The notes beneath the pieces were generated by a model, which saw only the letters and a program-made list of their open reading frames with translations, did not search any database and was not told where the DNA came from. Position numbers and translations under genes: made by a program. 44,265 bases of DNA from Flexilinea sp. (GTDB lineage Bacteria > Bacillota > Clostridia > Peptostreptococcales > Anaerovoracaceae): positions 1-44,265 of the forward strand of contig CAVGSW010000001.1 in the NCBI GenBank assembly GCA_963631945.1, written 5' to 3'. Below are positions 15,278 to 27,641 of this stretch, piece after piece. How positions within the stretch are numbered: position 1 is the stretch's first letter; every line of letters starts with the position of its first letter.

Positions 15278-15306
15278 TTGTGAACATTGTATACATGTGT
15301 TAAAAT
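15278..15306 (+). promoter_or_regulatory. Putative promoter of the hydrogenase operon
   Basis: TTGTGA-17bp-TAAAAT with extended TG. Confidence 0.55.
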
Positions 15307-15433: not shown

Positions 15434-15931
15434 ATGTGCTGCAGTGAACAAACCCAGATGCAACAGCTGGAAGAAGTGATCGAAAAATACAGAGATACGG
15501 CGGGCGCTTTGATACCGGTCCTGCATGAGGCGCAGGATATTTTCGGGTATCTGCCGCCAGAAGTCATGAAAAAAGTGGCAAGAGGGCTGGAAATTTCAGA
15601 GGCCAAGGTTTACGGCGTCGCGACGTTCTATTCGCAGTTTTCCCTGACACAGAAGGGAAAATACCGCGTCAGCGTTTGCCTCGGAACGGCATGCTATGTC
15701 AAGGGCGCTGCAGAGATTTTGGATAAACTGAAGGAAAGACTGATGATCGAAGTCGGGGAATGCACGGAAGACGGGCTGTTTTCGCTCGATTCCTGCCGCT
15801 GCATCGGGGCATGCAGCCTGGCACCAGTCATGACCATCAACGACGAGGTTTACGGTAGACTGACCGTAGACGACATTGACGGAATCATCAGCAAATACGA
15901 AGAGATGGAAAAGGAAGGAGTAGGCGCATGA
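15434..15931 (+). CDS. hydC: [FeFe]-hydrogenase NuoE-like [2Fe-2S] subunit (HydC/gamma)
   Basis: VATFYSQF, VCLGTAC, CIGACSLAP; AGGAG SD. Confidence 0.9.
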   Translation: MCCSEQTQMQQLEEVIEKYRDTAGALIPVLHEAQDIFGYLPPEVMKKVARGLEISEAKVYGVATFYSQFSLTQKGKYRVSVCLGTACYVKGAAEILDKLKERLMIEVGECTEDGLFSLDSCRCIGACSLAPVMTINDEVYGRLTVDDIDGIISKYEEMEKEGVGA

Positions 15932-17838
15932 CTGACAAGATGACGAATAACGCTGGTGCAGAGAATTTGCAGGCAAGCAAAAGAGTTCGCAGCAAAATCA
16001 AATCAGCGGAAGAATTGAAGCAAATCAAAGAAGAAACGATTGCGCAGATTGGCCATCGCTTCGATGCGCAGGTAGCAAGCCATGCGAGACTTTCGCTCAT
16101 GGTCTGCGGCGGAGGCGGATGCCACTCCTCCGGTTCAGGCAAGCTAATCGAGCGCCTCAAAGAACTTGCTGAACGCGACAATATGCAAGACGAAATTGAG
16201 ATTGTAAGAACTGGCTGCTTCGGGCTCTGCTCCGAGGGACCGATTTTGGTCGTTCAGCCAGAAGGCATCATGTACACAAAGGTCGCAGAAGAAGATATAG
16301 ACGAAATCTGGGAGAGCCATGTCAAGAACGGCAGGATGGTAGGACACCTGCTTTCCCCACACGAAAAAGATTTCTTCTCCAAGCAGAATCGTATCGCACT
16401 CAAGAACTGCGGTAAGATTAACCCGGAATGCATCGAAGAATACATCGCCCTCGACGGCTATGCCGCGCTCGCCAAGGCGCTGTACGAAATGCAGCCAGAG
16501 GACGTCATTGAAGTCGTTAAGGATTCTGGTTTGCGCGGCAGAGGCGGCGGCGGCTTCCCTGCAGGAGTTAAGTGGGAAGTAGCCGCACAGCAGCAGACAG
16601 CCGAAAAGAACGTAGTCTGCAATGCTGACGAGGGCGACCCAGGCGCTTTCATGGACCGTTCGATTTTGGAAGACGACCCGCACTCGGTACTGGAAGCTAT
16701 GGCAATCACTGCTTACGCTATCGGAGCAGAGTCAGGATATATCTACGTGCGTGCAGAATATCCGACCGCTGTAGAGCGCCTGAAGATTGCAATTGCGCAG
16801 GCACGCGAGTATGGACTTCTGGGCAAAGATATCCTCGGCAAGGGACTGAATTTTGATATTGAGATTCGTCTTGGTGCAGGCGCATTCGTTTGCGGAGAGG
16901 CGACAGCGCTGATGATATCCATAGAAGGCAATCGTGGCGAGCCGCGTCTCAAACCGCCATCATCAGCGGTACGCGGCCTGTTCGGACAGCCGACAATACT
17001 CAACAATGTAGAGACGTTTGCAAATGTGCCACAGATCCTGCTGAAGGGCGCAGACTGGTTCCGCAGCATCGGCACTGAGAAGTCCTCAGGCACGAAGGTT
17101 TTCGCACTCGGTGGCAAAATCAACAACTCTGGTCTGGTTGAAATTCCGATGGGCACGACCATGAGAGAGATGATATACGACATAGGCGGAGGAATTCCAA
17201 ACGGCAAGAAATTCAAGGCAGTTCAGACTGGCGGACCGTCGGGCGGCTGCATTCCAGCTGAGCACCTCGATACGCCGATCGACTATGATTCGCTGAGCAA
17301 ACTCGGCTCGATGATGGGTTCCGGCGGCATGATTGTCATGGATGAGAACACATGCATGGTCGATATTGCGAAGTTTTTCTTGGAATTTACGGTAGACGAA
17401 TCCTGCGGCAAATGCCCACCTTGCAGAATCGGCACGCGCAGAATGCTCGATATCCTCACGAGAATCACGGAAGGAAAGGGCACGATGGACGATTTGGACG
17501 AGCTGGAAGACCTGGCGCACACTATCAAGCGCGCATCGCTTTGCGGCCTCGGACAGTCCGCACCGAATCCAGTGCTTTCTACGATGAAATATTTCAAGGA
17601 CGAATACATCGCCCATGTACGCGACAAAAAATGCCCAGCTGGGGTTTGCGTTTCCATGCTGCGTTACGTTGTTGACAGCGAAATTTGTAAACGCTGCGGC
17701 ATCTGCGCGAAGAACTGTCCAGTTGGTGCAATCAGCGGCAGCAAGAACGAACCGTATGTTATTGATCAAGATAAATGTATCAAGTGCGGCGTCTGCATGG
17801 CTAAGTGTCCGTTCAAGTCTATCATGAAGAATGCGTAA
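15928..17838 (+). CDS. hydB: [FeFe]-hydrogenase NuoF-like diaphorase subunit (HydB/beta)
   Basis: N-terminal thioredoxin-like 2Fe-2S (CGGGGC, GCFGLC), GRGGGGF, NADEGDPGAFMD, GGPSG, ESCGKCPPCR, two C-terminal 4Fe-4S motifs; ATGA overlap with hydC. Confidence 0.92.
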   Translation: MTDKMTNNAGAENLQASKRVRSKIKSAEELKQIKEETIAQIGHRFDAQVASHARLSLMVCGGGGCHSSGSGKLIERLKELAERDNMQDEIEIVRTGCFGLCSEGPILVVQPEGIMYTKVAEEDIDEIWESHVKNGRMVGHLLSPHEKDFFSKQNRIALKNCGKINPECIEEYIALDGYAALAKALYEMQPEDVIEVVKDSGLRGRGGGGFPAGVKWEVAAQQQTAEKNVVCNADEGDPGAFMDRSILEDDPHSVLEAMAITAYAIGAESGYIYVRAEYPTAVERLKIAIAQAREYGLLGKDILGKGLNFDIEIRLGAGAFVCGEATALMISIEGNRGEPRLKPPSSAVRGLFGQPTILNNVETFANVPQILLKGADWFRSIGTEKSSGTKVFALGGKINNSGLVEIPMGTTMREMIYDIGGGIPNGKKFKAVQTGGPSGGCIPAEHLDTPIDYDSLSKLGSMMGSGGMIVMDENTCMVDIAKFFLEFTVDESCGKCPPCRIGTRRMLDILTRITEGKGTMDDLDELEDLAHTIKRASLCGLGQSAPNPVLSTMKYFKDEYIAHVRDKKCPAGVCVSMLRYVVDSEICKRCGICAKNCPVGAISGSKNEPYVIDQDKCIKCGVCMAKCPFKSIMKNA

Positions 17839-17852
17839 AGGGGGAAACTGAA

Positions 17853-19607
17853 ATGGGAAAAGTACATGTAACAATTGACGGAATACAGGTTTATGTTCCA
17901 GATACGTATACCATCTTGGAAGCGGCCAAGGAAATCAACATTCACATTCCGACCCTCTGCTTTCTGAAGGACGTCAGCGAAATCGGCTGCTGCAGAATGT
18001 GCCTCGTGGAAGTCAAGGGCTCCCGCGCGTTGCAGGCGGCATGCGGCTATCCAGTAAAGGACGGCATGGAAGTAAAGACGCACACGCCAGAGATCATGAA
18101 AGTCAGACAAAAGAATTTGGAGCTGATTTTATCGAATCACCCGGCAAGATGCCAGAGCTGCACCAGAGCTAACTCTTGCGAGCTGCAGATTCTGACGGAT
18201 ATGATGGACGTACATTTCGAAAATTATGTAAAATATCAAGAGCAAATCACCGCAGACCTGCCACTGTGTATCGACGACGGCATCTCGATTCAAAGAGACC
18301 CGAATCGCTGCATTCTCTGCAGACGATGCGTGAGCATGTGCAATAATATTCAGACAGTTGGCGCGATTTCAGCGATTAACCGCGGTTATCATACGGTAAT
18401 CGGAGCGGCAGAGAATCGCACGCTCGATGCTACAGTCTGCGTAAACTGCGGACAGTGCATCAACGTTTGCCCAACCGGCGCACTGCAGGAGCATCGCAAT
18501 ATCGATGAAGTATGGGATGCGCTTTATGATCCAGAAAAACACGTTGTCGTACAGACGGCTCCAGCTGTTCGTGCGGCGCTCGGCGAAGAATTCGGTAATC
18601 CAATCGGTACAGATGTGACGGGTAAGATGGTGACTGCACTGAGAATGCTAGGCTTCGACAAGGTATTCGATACGGACACCGCAGCGGATTTGACCATCAT
18701 GGAAGAGGGCACGGAGCTCATAGACCGCATTCGCGGCGGCGGCGTGCTGCCTCTGATCACATCCTGCTCGCCAGGTTGGATCAAGTTCTGCGAACACAAC
18801 TTCCCAGAAATGCTGCCGAATCTTTCGACATGCAAATCGCCGCATCAGATGATGGGCGCAATCATCAAGAGCTATTACGCAGAGAAAAACGACATCGACC
18901 CGAAGTCAATCTACGTGGTTTCCGTTATGCCATGCGTAGCGAAGAAATATGAAGCGCAGAGACCAGAGCTTTCGGTCAACGGACTTGCAGATGTAGACGC
19001 GGTTATCACGACGAGAGAACTTGCACGTATGATCAAAATGATCGGTATCGACTTCAATGCTCTCGGCGAAGGAGAGTTCGACAATCCGCTCGGCATATCG
19101 ACAGGCGCAGGTCTGATTTTCGGTACGACTGGCGGCGTAATGGAAGCAGCGCTCAGAACGGTAGCGGATCTTCTCAACGGCACAAGCTCCGATGCTATAG
19201 ACTATGTGCAGGTACGTGGCATAGAAGACGGAATCAAGATTGCTGAAGTCGAGATTGCTGACCTGAAGCTCAGGGCGGCGGTCGCACACGGACTTGGAAA
19301 TGCGCGTAGGCTCATCGAGCGCGTCAAGGCAGGAGAACACTTTGACTTTATCGAAATCATGGCTTGCCCAGGCGGCTGCATCAACGGTGGCGGACAGCCA
19401 CTCCAGGTTTCCGACGTGCGCAACTGGGTAGACTTTAAGGAAAAACGCGCCAGCGCCCTCTACAAAGGCGACCGCGAAAAGTATATACGCAAGGCGCATA
19501 ACAACCCGACAGTCAAGAAGCTCTACAAGGAGTACCTCGGCATGGCAGGCGGCATGCGCTCGCACCAGCTGCTGCACACCCACTACACCGACCGCAGCGA
19601 CATCTAA
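17853..19607 (+). CDS. hydA: [FeFe]-hydrogenase catalytic subunit (HydA/alpha, group A3 architecture)
   Basis: H-cluster motifs TSCSPGW, MPCVAKKYE, EIMACPGGCINGGG; N-terminal 2Fe-2S, HxxxCxxC and 2x4Fe-4S; ATG 17853 with AGGGGG SD. Confidence 0.95.
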   Translation: MGKVHVTIDGIQVYVPDTYTILEAAKEINIHIPTLCFLKDVSEIGCCRMCLVEVKGSRALQAACGYPVKDGMEVKTHTPEIMKVRQKNLELILSNHPARCQSCTRANSCELQILTDMMDVHFENYVKYQEQITADLPLCIDDGISIQRDPNRCILCRRCVSMCNNIQTVGAISAINRGYHTVIGAAENRTLDATVCVNCGQCINVCPTGALQEHRNIDEVWDALYDPEKHVVVQTAPAVRAALGEEFGNPIGTDVTGKMVTALRMLGFDKVFDTDTAADLTIMEEGTELIDRIRGGGVLPLITSCSPGWIKFCEHNFPEMLPNLSTCKSPHQMMGAIIKSYYAEKNDIDPKSIYVVSVMPCVAKKYEAQRPELSVNGLADVDAVITTRELARMIKMIGIDFNALGEGEFDNPLGISTGAGLIFGTTGGVMEAALRTVADLLNGTSSDAIDYVQVRGIEDGIKIAEVEIADLKLRAAVAHGLGNARRLIERVKAGEHFDFIEIMACPGGCINGGGQPLQVSDVRNWVDFKEKRASALYKGDREKYIRKAHNNPTVKKLYKEYLGMAGGMRSHQLLHTHYTDRSDI

Positions 19608-19613
19608 GCGCAT

Positions 19614-19660
19614 AAAAAACGAAGAGCTAAGAATTTGAAACATAATCCTTAGCTCTTTTA
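19614..19660. terminator. Bidirectional terminator between hydA and prfC
   Basis: AAGAGCTAAG...CTTAGCTCTT stem with flanking A- and T-runs. Confidence 0.75.
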
Positions 19661-23096: not shown

Positions 23097-23267
23097 AACG
23101 TGAATTTTCCTGATTTAGTGATAGAATTATATTAGGCAAATTGTAAAATCTCAAGGAAAAAGTCGGATTATCTTAGATTTTTTCCAAACGAAGAAATGCT
23201 GGAAATTAGCGACATTTCAAGACGGATTTTATCAAAAACCTTCAGACATAAAGATGAGGAAAAAAAG

Positions 23268-26200
23268 ATGAGATTAGGAATTGACGTTGGTTCAACAACC
23301 GTAAAATTGGTTTTACTAGATGACAATGGCAGAATAATTTACAGCAGATACGAACGCCATATGTCTAGTGTATTTAGCAAAGTAAGCGAGCTCCTGGAGA
23401 ATTTGCTGGCAGAGAAAGGCGATATTGAGATCAAGCCTGTAATCACCGGCTCTGGTGGCCTGTCGCTCGCAGAGAAAATCGGTGCAAAGTTCGAGCAAGA
23501 AGTTGTTACATGCTCGCTCGCAGTTCAGAGGCTCATTCCGCAGACAGACGTAGTAATTGAGCTTGGCGGCGAAGACGCGAAGATCACATACTTCGGCAAC
23601 ACCGTGGAGCAGCGTATGAACGGAACATGCGCAGGCGGCACGGGCGCGTTCATCGACCAGATGGCTATACTTCTGAACACAGACGCTGCGGGACTTAACG
23701 AAGCAGCGAAGAATTACGATACGATTTATCCAATCGCGGCTCGCTGCGGCGTATTTGCAAAGACAGACATTCAGCCCCTCATCAACGAAGGAGCGCCAAT
23801 AGAGAACTTGGCCGCATCCATCTTCCAGGCAGTAGTAAATCAGACGATAAGCGGCCTCGCATGCGGACATAAGATCCGCGGAAACGTGGCATTCCTCGGT
23901 GGCCCGCTGACATACCTTTCAGAATTAAGAAAAAGATTCGCAGAGACACTCGAGCTCGAGCCGGAAGAGATCATCTTCCCAGAGAACTCGAAGTATTTCG
24001 TTGCAATCGGCGCCGCATTCATGGCAGACAAAGAACAGAGCATCCAGCTCAGCGAGCTCCTCGACAGGATCCAGCATACTGATGTAAATGCTGGCCTTTC
24101 GACCAAACACGTTGAGGCGCTGTTCGCAAGCGACGCAGAATACGAAGAATTCAAGGAAAGACACGCGAGAGCTAAGGTTCGCCGCAAAGAACTCTCAGAG
24201 AGTAGCGGCCCGCTTTTCCTCGGAATAGACGCAGGCTCCACTACGACGAAGTCCGCACTCATCGACCGCGAAGGCAATTTATTATACTCATTCTACAAAA
24301 ATAACGAAGGCAATCCGCTCGAGTCCACGAGACAGATGCTCACAGACCTTTATTCGAAGATGCCAGAGAACGCATATATCGCAAACACGACGGTAACTGG
24401 CTACGGTGAAGGCCTCATCAAGGCTGGCTTCCGTGCAGACTTCGGCATCATCGAGACGATGGCTCACTACAAGGGCGCAGAGGAATTCCTGCCAGGCGTT
24501 GACTTTATCCTCGACATCGGCGGACAGGACATGAAGTGCATGAGAATCAAAGACCATGCGATTTACAGCATCATGCTGAACGAAGCATGCTCCTCTGGCT
24601 GCGGATCCTTTATCGAAACATACGCAAAGTCGGTTAACATGCCGGTTGAAGAGTTCGCGAAAGTTGGTTTACATTCCAAGAATCCTGTAGACCTCGGCAC
24701 GAGATGCACGGTATTCATGAACTCCATGGTTAAGCAGGCGCAGAAGGAAGGCGCAAGCATTGGCGACATCGCTGCAGGTCTGTCATACTCAGTAATCAAG
24801 AACGCATTATATAAAGTTATCAAACTCAGAAACCCAGACGAAGCAGGCGAGAAAATCGTCGTTCAAGGCGGCACATTCCTCAACGAATCCGTGCTCAGAG
24901 CAATTGAGAAAGTTCTCGGCAAGGACGTCGTTCGTCCTGACATAGCAGGAATCATGGGCGCATACGGTTGCGCACTCAACTCGAAGGCGAACTGGTCGGA
25001 AGGCTATAGGTCGACGATTCTCAGCGCAGATGAACTCGACACGTTCGGTGCAACGAGCAACAACACGAGATGCCAGGGTTGCGAGAATCGCTGCATGCTC
25101 ACGGTAACGAAATTCAACGGAAACGAAAAATACATCACAGGAAATCGCTGCGAAAAGGGAAGCGGCAAGAAGACTTCCATCAGCGATCTTCCAGATATTT
25201 ATGAATACAAGCTGAAGAGACTCTTCGGTTACAAGCCGCTCACAGAGGAAGAAGCAAGCCGCGGAAGCGTTGCAATTCCTCGTGTTTTGAACATGTACGA
25301 GAACTATCCGTTCTGGTTCACGTTCTTCACACAGCTCGGCTACAGAGTAGTTCTCTCGCCGATGTCCTCGAAGGAACTCTACGAGAAGGGAATCGACAGC
25401 ATTTCCTCCGACACGGCTTGCTACCCAGCGAAGCTCGTTCACGGCCACATCAAGACGCTCGTCGAGATGGGCCAGAAGTGGATATTCTACCCATGCATCA
25501 ACTACGAGCAGGTAGAAGACGAAAAGTCCCAGAACCATTACAATTGCCCAGTTGTAGCGACATATCCAGAGGTAATCGCAAACAACATGAGCGACATATT
25601 CCATGAATACGGAGTAGAATTCTCGCATCCGTTCGTTCCATATGATAACGATGACAGACTCATCAGAAGAATGGCAGAGATCCTCGCTCCGAAGGGCGTA
25701 ACTCGCTCAGAGGTTAAGAAGGCGGTTCGCGCAGCGAGAGCAGAGCAGCACGCATTCAAGGCCGATGTCCGCAAGGCAGGAAAGGAAGCCCTTGACTTCG
25801 CTAAGAAAAACGGCAAGAAGGCGATCATCCTCGCAGGCAGACCTTATCACCTCGACACAGAGATCAACCACGGCATAAACAAGATGATCACATCCTTTGA
25901 TATGGTCGTTCTTTCAGAGGATTCCGTATGTGAACTGAACAGCCTGCCGAGACCAATCAGAGTTCTCGACCAGTGGACATACCACTCGAGACTGTACAAG
26001 GCAGCTGATTTTGCTGGAAAGGTAGACGGCGTAGAGCTCGTACAGCTCAACTCATTCGGCTGCGGCGTAGATGCTGTAACGACGGACGAAGTAGAGGAAA
26101 TCCTTGAGAATTCCAACAAATTATATACAGTGCTGAAGATAGACGAGGGCAACAACCTCGGTGCTATAAGAATCAGAATCCGCTCGCTGAAGGCGGCGAT

Positions 26201-27641
26201 GGAAGAGCGCGACAAGAACAACGTCAAGGCTAAACATTCGGACAAGCCTTACGAGAGAGTTTTCTTTACTAAGAAAATGAAGGAAGAGTACACGCTTCTC
26301 GTTCCGCAGATGTCGCCAGTTCACTTCCAGTACCTCGAAGTTGCAATCAGAGAGTGCGGCTACAACGCAGTAATCGTGCCGACGGACGACGACCACGCAG
26401 TGGACGAAGGCCTCAAGTACGTTAACAACGACGCATGCTACCCGACGCTCGTAACGCTCGGCAAGATGATCAGCGCACTGAAGTCAGGCAATTACGACCT
26501 GAACAGGACGGCGCTCCTCATGTCGCAGACGGGCGGCGGCTGCAGAGCCAGCAACTACATCGCGCTCCTCAGAAAGGCCCTCAAGGACCTTAACATGGAG
26601 CAGGTTCCAGTTGTTTCGTTCAACACAGTCGGCCTCGAGTCCAACCCAGGTTTCAAGATCGACATCAAGATGGGCAAGCGCCTCGTAATGGCTGCTATCT
26701 ACGGCGACCTTTTCCAGAGACTCATCTATGCGACGAGACCGTACGAGAAGGAGCCTGGTTCAGCAGAAGCTATAATGAAAAAATACGAAGCGCAGATTTT
26801 CCAGAACTGCAAGGACGGCAAGCTCAGCACGTTCAAGCGCCTCATCCCACAGATCGTTGAGGAATACGACAATCTGCCGCTGTATGATATCCAGAAGCCG
26901 AAGGTAGGTGTGGTTGGAGAGATTTTGGTAAAATACCATCCAGATGCGAACAACCATATCGTTGACATAATCGAAAAAGAAGGCGGCGAGGCAGTCGTTC
27001 TGGAGCTCGTAGATTTCTTCATGTACAGCATGTATAACAAGAAATTCAACCTTGAGAAGCTTTCGGGGACGCGCAAGGCGTACATCCTCAACATGCTTGG
27101 AATCAAGTTAGTTGAATGGTTCCGCAAGCCTTACAGGAAGGCTCTGAGGGAGAGCAAGAGATTCGATGAACCTTCGCATATTCAGCAGACGGCAGAGGAA
27201 GCATCGGAGATTGCTGCACTCGGCAACCAGTGCGGCGAGGGCTGGCTCCTCACGGGCGAGATGATTGAGCTCATAAAGGGCGGAGCACCGAACATCGCGT
27301 GCTTGCAGCCATTTGCGTGCCTGCCAAATCACGTTACAGGCAAGGGCATGATGAAGGCAATCCGCGAGAGATATCCGAGTGCGAACATCGTTGCTATCGA
27401 CTACGATCCGGGCGCAAGCAATGTCAACCAGCTCAACCGAATCAAGCTGATGATGGCAACAGCGCACAAGAATTTGCAAAAGGATGAAACAAACCTCTTG
27501 AAAGTATCGGACAACAGTGATATAATGTCTGAGTTACAATACAAATACACAGAGGTTAGGAGGTGTCTCCATGGGAAGACACGGTACGATAGCGGGCAGG
27601 AAGGCCGCACAGGACTCCAAGCGAGCAGCAATGTTCACTAA
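23268..27641 (+). CDS. 2-hydroxyacyl-CoA dehydratase activator-related fusion protein (two BadF/BadG/BcrA/BcrD ASKHA ATPase domains plus DUF2229-like region)
   Basis: Two GID(V/A)GSTT motifs, ELGGED/DIGGQD, MNGTCAGGTG and LNEACSSGCG, RCGVFA/RCTVF, C-terminal QPFACLPNH; ATG 23268 with GAGG SD. The 3' end is probably overextended (see findings). Confidence 0.88.
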   Translation: MRLGIDVGSTTVKLVLLDDNGRIIYSRYERHMSSVFSKVSELLENLLAEKGDIEIKPVITGSGGLSLAEKIGAKFEQEVVTCSLAVQRLIPQTDVVIELGGEDAKITYFGNTVEQRMNGTCAGGTGAFIDQMAILLNTDAAGLNEAAKNYDTIYPIAARCGVFAKTDIQPLINEGAPIENLAASIFQAVVNQTISGLACGHKIRGNVAFLGGPLTYLSELRKRFAETLELEPEEIIFPENSKYFVAIGAAFMADKEQSIQLSELLDRIQHTDVNAGLSTKHVEALFASDAEYEEFKERHARAKVRRKELSESSGPLFLGIDAGSTTTKSALIDREGNLLYSFYKNNEGNPLESTRQMLTDLYSKMPENAYIANTTVTGYGEGLIKAGFRADFGIIETMAHYKGAEEFLPGVDFILDIGGQDMKCMRIKDHAIYSIMLNEACSSGCGSFIETYAKSVNMPVEEFAKVGLHSKNPVDLGTRCTVFMNSMVKQAQKEGASIGDIAAGLSYSVIKNALYKVIKLRNPDEAGEKIVVQGGTFLNESVLRAIEKVLGKDVVRPDIAGIMGAYGCALNSKANWSEGYRSTILSADELDTFGATSNNTRCQGCENRCMLTVTKFNGNEKYITGNRCEKGSGKKTSISDLPDIYEYKLKRLFGYKPLTEEEASRGSVAIPRVLNMYENYPFWFTFFTQLGYRVVLSPMSSKELYEKGIDSISSDTACYPAKLVHGHIKTLVEMGQKWIFYPCINYEQVEDEKSQNHYNCPVVATYPEVIANNMSDIFHEYGVEFSHPFVPYDNDDRLIRRMAEILAPKGVTRSEVKKAVRAARAEQHAFKADVRKAGKEALDFAKKNGKKAIILAGRPYHLDTEINHGINKMITSFDMVVLSEDSVCELNSLPRPIRVLDQWTYHSRLYKAADFAGKVDGVELVQLNSFGCGVDAVTTDEVEEILENSNKLYTVLKIDEGNNLGAIRIRIRSLKAAMEERDKNNVKAKHSDKPYERVFFTKKMKEEYTLLVPQMSPVHFQYLEVAIRECGYNAVIVPTDDDHAVDEGLKYVNNDACYPTLVTLGKMISALKSGNYDLNRTALLMSQTGGGCRASNYIALLRKALKDLNMEQVPVVSFNTVGLESNPGFKIDIKMGKRLVMAAIYGDLFQRLIYATRPYEKEPGSAEAIMKKYEAQIFQNCKDGKLSTFKRLIPQIVEEYDNLPLYDIQKPKVGVVGEILVKYHPDANNHIVDIIEKEGGEAVVLELVDFFMYSMYNKKFNLEKLSGTRKAYILNMLGIKLVEWFRKPYRKALRESKRFDEPSHIQQTAEEASEIAALGNQCGEGWLLTGEMIELIKGGAPNIACLQPFACLPNHVTGKGMMKAIRERYPSANIVAIDYDPGASNVNQLNRIKLMMATAHKNLQKDETNLLKVSDNSDIMSELQYKYTEVRRCLHGKTRYDSGQEGRTGLQASSNVH
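27498..27526 (+). promoter_or_regulatory. Sigma-A promoter of yebC (inside the annotated end of the upstream CDS)
   Basis: TTGAAA-17bp-TATAAT with extended TG. Confidence 0.75.

Follow-up and report, generated by a model that had tools for sequence, protein, structure and literature searches.

An arginine-free nucleotide pocket in a HydABC-type [FeFe]-hydrogenase of Flexilinea sp. suggests relaxed NADP(H)/NAD(H) use in a lineage without detected maturases

The stretch of DNA analysed here, referred to as the window, comprises 44,265 nucleotides of contig CAVGSW010000001.1 (Flexilinea sp., assembly GCA_963631945.1) and carries a hydCBA operon encoding a trimeric [FeFe]-hydrogenase. Its diaphorase subunit HydB lacks all three residues that characterize the adenosine pocket of NAD-type HydB. 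From sequence, the pocket of this HydABC is predicted to accept NADP(H) and, discriminating only loosely, probably NAD(H) as well; we assign this reading a probability of about 0.5. A preliminary description of the window had proposed a stand-alone NADP-using HydABC. The loss of the pocket Glu on which this was based matches Ser320 of the Thermoanaerobacter kivui enzyme, but the proposal does not hold as a novelty, since T. kivui is a published precedent. New here are the Arg-free pocket, repeated switches of the pocket within the family, and maturase-less hosts with a candidate importer.

Two of the three pocket changes lie in the motifs C322-G-E-A325-T-A-L (16891-16911) and K342-P-P-S345-S346 (16951-16965), the latter replacing KPPFP. 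Both had been noted before, the Ala with its codon GCG, and were confirmed. The HydB fragment 314-361 (48 residues) aligns gap-free to residues 278-325 of HydB from Acetobacterium woodii, which places Ala325 on Glu289, and to residues 309-356 of T. kivui HydB (CGES320TAL...RPPR340T, Gly213). In the 445-amino acid (aa) NuoF of structure 7awt, presumably complex I of Escherichia coli, residues 2-48 of the fragment match 173-219 without gaps, so that Ala325 falls on residue 183. Thus, the previous assignment of this Ala to the NuoF E183 position agrees with all three alignments. Val218 is the third altered position, at which 18 of 19 Glu-type subunits compared have Phe. Glu is kept together with Phe in HydB of A. 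woodii and Thermotoga maritima and in the StnB/NfnB chains compared (Tyr in 9n5u). A small residue combined with loss of Phe at 218 and 345 affects the same three positions that distinguish the T. kivui NADP enzyme from the NAD type, and from this threefold match we infer NADP(H) use. The preliminary description overlooked that the Ser of KPPSS sits at T. kivui Arg340, so that the NADP signature is partial. Ser in place of the usual Arg suggests relaxed use of NADP and NAD.

Conservation of Ala and KPPSS among relatives was borne out within the genus. Of its 20 genomes, 13 contained a HydB orthologue, and 12 of these carry Ala or Ser together with PPSS (7 Ala/PPSS, the window included, and 5 Ser/PPSS), the remaining one (genome G003) being canonical. 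The codons at position 325 differ among these genomes, with GCG or GCA for Ala and TCC or TCG for Ser. This conservation with genome-specific codons rules out a read error as source of Ala325. Among the query and its best 120 of 7994 protein matches, Ala was combined with Ser345 in 43 sequences, Ser with Ser345 in 12, and Gly with Arg345 in 66. Ser345 was fixed in 67 out of 67 clade rows.

The motif CGEETAL, previously described as near-invariant, is so for NAD-type subunits but not in general. Non-Glu variants were sought by pattern in the species-genome collection, with codons limited to those whose second base is not A, so that Gln, His, Asn, Asp, Lys and Tyr fell outside the scan; at least 120 loci from many phyla were obtained. 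Position 345 of the 120 loci listed was occupied by Arg in 97, His in 18, Ser in 2, Gln in 1 and Pro in 2 cases, the last resulting from one-residue insertions. As judged from these sequences, the usual signature of the NADP type is a small residue plus a basic residue (Arg or His in 115 of the 120 loci listed), and it is widespread. The window HydB possesses the first half of this signature, Ala325, and lacks the second, with Ser345 in its place. Many NuoF-like subunits combining a small residue with Arg or His were found in Desulfobacterota, Nitrospirota and Thermoplasmatota without an H-cluster motif within 4 kb. These loci are candidates for NADP-using Bfu enzymes with other third substrates.

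The history of the pocket was followed in the family Anaerovoracaceae, in which 175 out of 401 genomes contained a close HydB (188 matches). Among the best 89 of these 188, which were fetched, 51 have Phe/Glu/Phe, 31 a small residue with Arg or His, and 7, all from the genus of the window, a small residue with Ser. There were no mixed rows, and all 51 Glu-type rows keep Phe at both flanking positions. Hence, the three pocket positions change together, 51 rows having all and 38 none of the NAD-type residues. In eight relatives an NAD-type and an NADP-type HydB are located on one contig, and the four regions of this kind that were fetched are tandem hydCBA operons (G352:C4, G212:C8, G301:C8 and G314:C9). 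Such tandem operons point to two distinct functions. The two HydA copies of G301 group together, which suggests conversion or recent duplication.

In a HydB tree calculated without both pocket segments, the Ser clade is sister to the Gly+Arg clade (support 96/97; sister 75% identity), and the Glu state switches at least three times among 30 family rows. A single origin of all non-Glu HydB was rejected by the approximately unbiased (AU) test for these 30 rows (p 0.005) as well as for a wider set of 31 rows (p 0.029). Wider sampling also overturned a placement of the Glu-type HydB of G003 as direct sister of the altered clade. Large sequence sets were analysed with FastTree. The HydA tree groups the Ser genus with two Arg-bearing genera (support 98), which favours the direction from Arg to Ser. 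The fixed Ser345 codon TCA, however, is no more distant from Phe TTC than from an Arg codon, so that either order would fit, and paralogues may have undergone gene conversion. The ratio of nonsynonymous to synonymous substitution rates (dN/dS; Nei-Gojobori, only pairs with dS of 0.1-2) in the nucleotide-site region was 0.027 and 0.015 in two Ser clades. This strong purifying selection indicates that the pocket is not decaying.

HydABC belongs to the bifurcating family by every sequence criterion tested. The motifs from which the preliminary description had derived this membership, DEGDPGAFM, KVFAL, GGPSG, the N-terminal thioredoxin-like 2Fe-2S and the C-terminal 2x[4Fe-4S] domains, are all present. 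The trimeric hydC-hydB-hydA operon with the H-cluster in HydA corresponds to bifurcating HydABC (Bfu type 1, group A3), and the extra Fe-S domains of HydB are marked by Cys60/65/97/101 and Cys587-627. Of the residues proposed for bifurcating beta subunits (PMC7311640), Ala/Glu and Met at T. maritima positions 232/234 are represented by Ala240 and Met242 (offset +8). Phe instead of Tyr near the flavin mononucleotide (FMN) is found as Phe320 in GAGAFVCGE; position 367 of that paper was not matched by offset, and the nearby residue 378 is also Phe. The Phe/Glu/Phe pocket of NAD-type HydB is replaced by Val218/Ala325/Ser345, with the small residue of the T. kivui type present and Arg or His at the Phe of PPF absent. 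By sequence, HydABC most likely works like the T. kivui NADP enzyme; it falls outside that type by the missing Arg340 and hence represents a variant.

For T. kivui HydABC, a structure with bound NADP+ has been described in which Phe205 and Arg340 are named as nucleotide contacts (PMC10021017). The supplementary alignments of this paper and of PMC7311640 may already mark pocket residues. In the window HydB, loss of Glu would remove a steric and charge clash with the 2'-phosphate, as with Ser320 of T. kivui, and loss of the two flanking Phe would open the adenosine site. The lack of Arg at position 345 would remove positive selection for the phosphate and make the site permissive instead of strict. 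For the enzyme, the reaction 2 H2 + NAD(P)+ + 2 Fd(ox) <-> NAD(P)H + 2 Fd(red) + 3 H+ (Fd, ferredoxin) is predicted.

The preliminary description missed that maturases were not found, a point which could not be seen from its material and which bears on whether the enzyme is active. HydE, HydF and HydG each scored above cut-off in only one of the 20 genus genomes, G003, and were found neither in the source genome (87% complete) nor in the 12 altered-pocket genomes, six of which are 90-98% complete. G003 is also the only genome with the canonical pocket; its HydE, HydF and HydG had no orthologue in the source genome by tblastn, and a nitrogenase-like HydG substitute and TM1266 were not found there either. 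Of 76 family genomes selected for the search, 61 gave a match for HydF and 58 for HydG, and in 14 neither was found. In G062, G151 and G022 (and G217), HydF was found and HydG was not. Up to three intact [FeFe]-hydrogenase genes are kept under purifying selection where hydE/F/G were not found, in the source genome and its genus as well as in the family genera g37, g38 and g62 and genome G185. Counting fetched copies only, NADP-type HydB occurred in 25 out of 26 genomes without maturases versus 18 out of 62 with maturases; these 88 genomes are related, and a single loss event or two could underlie the association, which is therefore no independent statistic. NADP-type copies also occur alongside maturases. 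The H-cluster motifs were intact in all 44 HydA, and dN/dS of the H-domain was 0.014-0.043 in maturase-less groups versus 0.051-0.065 in maturase-bearing ones.

Several points weigh against relaxed use of NADP(H) and NAD(H) by this hydrogenase. Arg may be required for efficient NADP binding, since the 120 non-Glu loci listed include 115 with Arg or His and 2 with Ser, and no characterised natural enzyme with a small residue plus Ser was found. The fixed differences between the Ser clades and the Arg clade include no basic residue gained in the vicinity of the site, and Lys/Arg349 occurs in NAD-type subunits too, which argues against a compensating gain. StnB-type chains have Ala at position 218, so that an enzyme missing only this Phe could still use NAD. 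Other enzymes encoded in the source genome, a GltD-linked hydrogenase and an Stn-like transhydrogenase, could already supply NADPH. HydABC may also be inactive, as searches of the 87% complete genome did not detect HydE/F/G. Another alternative is an ordinary NAD-specific HydABC, in which the substitutions are neutral or weaken adenosine binding and Arg was lost on a return to NAD. The protein nests among NAD-type HydB with 67-68% identity, reversals happen given the at least three pocket-state switches in the family tree, and few mutations separate Phe TTC from Ser TCA and Glu GAR from Ala GCG. We regard such an enzyme as the least likely of the alternatives, as none of the three NAD-type residues is present, the positions match those of the NADP enzyme, and both Phe were kept without exception in the Glu-type rows among the best 89 of 188.

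Departure from the NAD type could also have gone further, resulting in a strictly NADP(H)-specific enzyme like that of T. kivui, in which the hydroxyls of Ser345 and Ser346 together with the existing Lys215, Arg340, Lys342 or Arg349 hold the 2'-phosphate and NAD is a poor substrate. Ser hydroxyls are common phosphate ligands. The disappearance of Glu and both Phe, the fixation of Ser345 throughout the clade, and the full Arg signature of the nearest relatives (g38 in the HydB tree, g38 and g37 in the HydA tree) are in line with strict specificity. The contact Arg of T. kivui is absent, though, and without a compensating basic gain we rate this alternative as possible but rather improbable. A different objection concerns the catalytic side. 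HydA might lack the [2Fe] subcluster and HydABC might act as an Fe-S/FMN redox module that links NAD(P)H with ferredoxin or some other partner. Confinement of HydE/F/G to G003, the lack of orthologues of the G003 maturases in the source genome, and the failure to find a nitrogenase-like substitute or TM1266 there would fit a non-working hydrogenase. In contrast, [2Fe]-contacting and proton-transfer motifs are invariant, constraint on the H-domain equals or exceeds that in maturase-bearing genomes, and all three HydA-type genes of the source genome keep the H-cluster motifs. Furthermore, [FeFe]-hydrogenases without maturases occur in archaea, Giardia and Entamoeba, with active enzymes reported for the latter two and inferred for archaea (PMC11216029). 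A non-working hydrogenase is thus unlikely, and a working HydABC with a pocket relaxed for NADP(H) and NAD(H) is the reading that we prefer.

Without hydE/F/G, assembly of the H-cluster would need a non-canonical route, for which an NMT1-type ATP-binding cassette (ABC) importer is a candidate. Homologues of its binding protein were found in all 18 genomes lacking both HydF and HydG versus 7 of 62 others. In the genus they are present in 16 out of 20 genomes, among them 11 of the 12 with an altered pocket and not G003. In 3 out of 15 regions (G173, G098 and G021, all with maturases) the binding-protein gene follows hydA immediately and in the same orientation, in two (G157 and G203) it is located tail-to-tail beside the operon, and in seven it is followed by a gene for a 446-486-aa permease or permease-ATPase. 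A small gene resembling TM1266 by eye precedes it in 4 of the 15 regions. Pfam gave weak NMT1/phosphonate/menaquinone-type matches to the binding protein. Co-occurrence and gene order make the importer a candidate maturase substitute. An H-cluster auxotrophy could be envisaged, in which the dual-cofactor hydrogenase with its Arg-free pocket persists after loss of hydE/F/G by importing the diiron cofactor or a precursor from the community; we consider this a tentative and rather improbable idea. In the literature covered on maturase-less hydrogenases and TM1266, from which most subscription journals are missing, no title or opening dealt with the lineage of the window or an importer route. Contigs C127 and C139 of the source genome share a run of dCMP deaminase-like, glycosyltransferase-like and binding-protein genes with copies 83-87% identical, which suggests that the assembly mixes two related populations.

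Table 1. Features of the hydCBA locus (window coordinates) and importer genes elsewhere in the source genome (contig coordinates, C; locus coordinates, L)
Feature	Location	Strand	Basis or remark
Sigma-70-like promoter candidate, extended -10, upstream of hydC	15278..15306	+	Consensus match alone
hydC, thioredoxin-like [2Fe-2S] subunit, 165 aa	15434..15931	+	Open reading frame (ORF); PF01257, E 8e-55; NuoE family TIGR01958 above cut-off
hydB, diaphorase subunit (FMN, NAD(P)), 636 aa; 2Fe-2S at the N-terminus, 2x[4Fe-4S] at the C-terminus	15928..17838	+	ORF, Pfam
Phe210, retained; equals T. kivui Phe205	16555..16557	+	Gap-free offset; invariant within clade
Val218, third altered pocket position (Gly213 in T. 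kivui)	16579..16581	+	Alignment
Ala325 (GCG), NuoF E183-equivalent (Ser320 in T. kivui, Glu289 in A. woodii)	16900..16902	+	Gap-free alignment
Ser345-Ser346, versus Phe-Pro (NAD type) or Arg-Thr (T. kivui Arg340)	16960..16965	+	Alignment
GGPSG of SLBB region, residues 435-439	17230..17244	+	Bifurcation motif of PMC7311640, present
hydA, H-cluster catalytic subunit, 584 aa	17853..19607	+	ATG 17853 with purine-rich site upstream; NF040763, TIGR02512
14-bp hairpin between convergent hydA and prfC	19622..19657	.	Scored on - strand
NMT1-type ABC binding protein	C127:2641-3606 (L286:1315-2280)		Second copy on C139 (L287), 86% identical
Permease-ATPase gene end	C22:14891-15397, contig edge		~7 kb upstream of GltD-linked hydrogenase pair

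The features of the locus are compiled in Table 1. The 3'-end of hydC overlaps the start of hydB by 4 nucleotides, and the longest frame of hydA begins at GTG 17805. HydA scored 881 bits with NF040763 (cut-off 765), also passed the cut-off of TIGR02512, and has the intact H-cluster motifs TSCSPGW, MPCVAKKYE and EIMACPGGC. In the window (18759-18842), TSCSPGW is followed 21 residues on by an invariant Cys in TCKSP, as in A. woodii; T. kivui HydA and CpI have TSCC and lack the Cys of TCKSP. This second Cys may substitute for the absent cluster ligand. The operon is flanked by queA on one side and convergent prfC on the other, and the hairpin between hydA and prfC is likely the terminator. hydCBA forms a three-gene unit in the window and in 40 fetched regions, where labels were given to Hyd genes and recurring neighbours. 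A Rex-like operator pattern matched 14 times versus 19.7 expected by chance, none convincingly upstream of hydC. The window also encodes a 1481-aa acyl-CoA dehydratase activase/DUF2229 fusion protein (23196-27641).

That the trimer stands alone, with no link to a formate dehydrogenase, had been inferred before: none is encoded beside hydCBA, and none was found in the source genome, in which the sole match to PF00384 (molybdopterin family) is a Stn-like large subunit on contig C42. It belongs to a StnABC-like (Nfn-Bfu) transhydrogenase operon (L318:2873-8671) whose B subunit is of the Glu type and which encodes a GltD/molybdopterin-fold subunit of 1152 aa. Contig C22 (L317:4076-7755) encodes a second [FeFe]-hydrogenase together with a 639-aa NADH_4Fe-4S/GltD-like flavoprotein, and contig C48 a monomeric [FeFe]-hydrogenase. 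RnfC is also present. Glycine reductase GrdB had no match in the source genome, and control genomes gave no match either.

Bifurcating hydrogenases are commonly taken to use NAD. The family offers natural pairs with Phe/Glu/Phe, small residue plus Arg, and small residue plus Ser (67-77% identical, some in tandem) which would reveal the determinants of NAD and NADP use. These determinants matter for the prediction of redox flow from genomes and for H2-driven regeneration of NADPH. At a dual-cofactor bifurcating hydrogenase, if true, the NADH and NADPH pools would merge at one enzyme. Of wider interest is how [FeFe]-hydrogenases remain strongly selected in genera lacking hydE/F/G, and an importer tracking maturase loss is a concrete candidate for maturase-independent H-cluster supply.

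Among known systems, T. kivui HydABC (8a6t/8bew), a stand-alone trimer free of formate dehydrogenase and purified in 2021, showed 20.8 U/mg with NADP+ plus ferredoxin and less than 0.01 with NAD+ (PMC8578170). It shares with the window enzyme the stand-alone hydCBA, the absence of formate dehydrogenase, the small residue at the E183 site, the loss of Phe at 213/218, the retained Phe205/210 and an equal domain layout. It differs in Arg340 versus Ser345 and in TSCCP of HydA versus TSCSPGW, and maturases were not found in the host of the window. Both HydB (871 versus 735 bits) and HydA (687 versus 582 bits) of the window are nearer to A. woodii than to T. kivui, and A. woodii HydB (7q4v_B, E 4e-261) is the best solved relative; A. 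woodii also provides the closest solved HydA. All Fe-S motifs, A-F-M, GGPSG and TSCSPGW are common to the window enzyme and the NAD+-specific enzymes of A. woodii (7q4v/8a5e) and T. maritima (7p5h). Unlike the window HydB, these have retained the Glu and the two Phe that line the adenosine pocket.

Removal of the pocket Glu in E. coli NuoF E183 variants reportedly relaxes NAD specificity. In the soluble hydrogenase (SH) of Cupriavidus necator, E341 is presumably the E183-equivalent residue. These are laboratory substitutions in non-bifurcating enzymes, whereas HydABC of the window is natural and, by sequence, of the bifurcating type. The engineered SH variant E341A/S342R had an affinity for NADP+ similar to that for NAD+ (review PMC10127272; also PMC12809855), a relaxation of specificity and not a switch. 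The NADP-specific HytA-E/FdhA of Clostridium autoethanogenum also couples NADP and ferredoxin in bifurcation via a NuoF-like subunit (PMC5861303). This complex is larger and has formate dehydrogenase attached to it, whereas the window locus comprises three genes with neither formate dehydrogenase nor extra Fe-S subunits. With archaea, Giardia and Entamoeba the genus of the window shares intact catalytic subunits in genomes without hydE/F/G; in contrast to these, whole bacterial genera are concerned here, other genera of the family keep hydEFG, and a co-occurring ABC importer is a candidate substitute.

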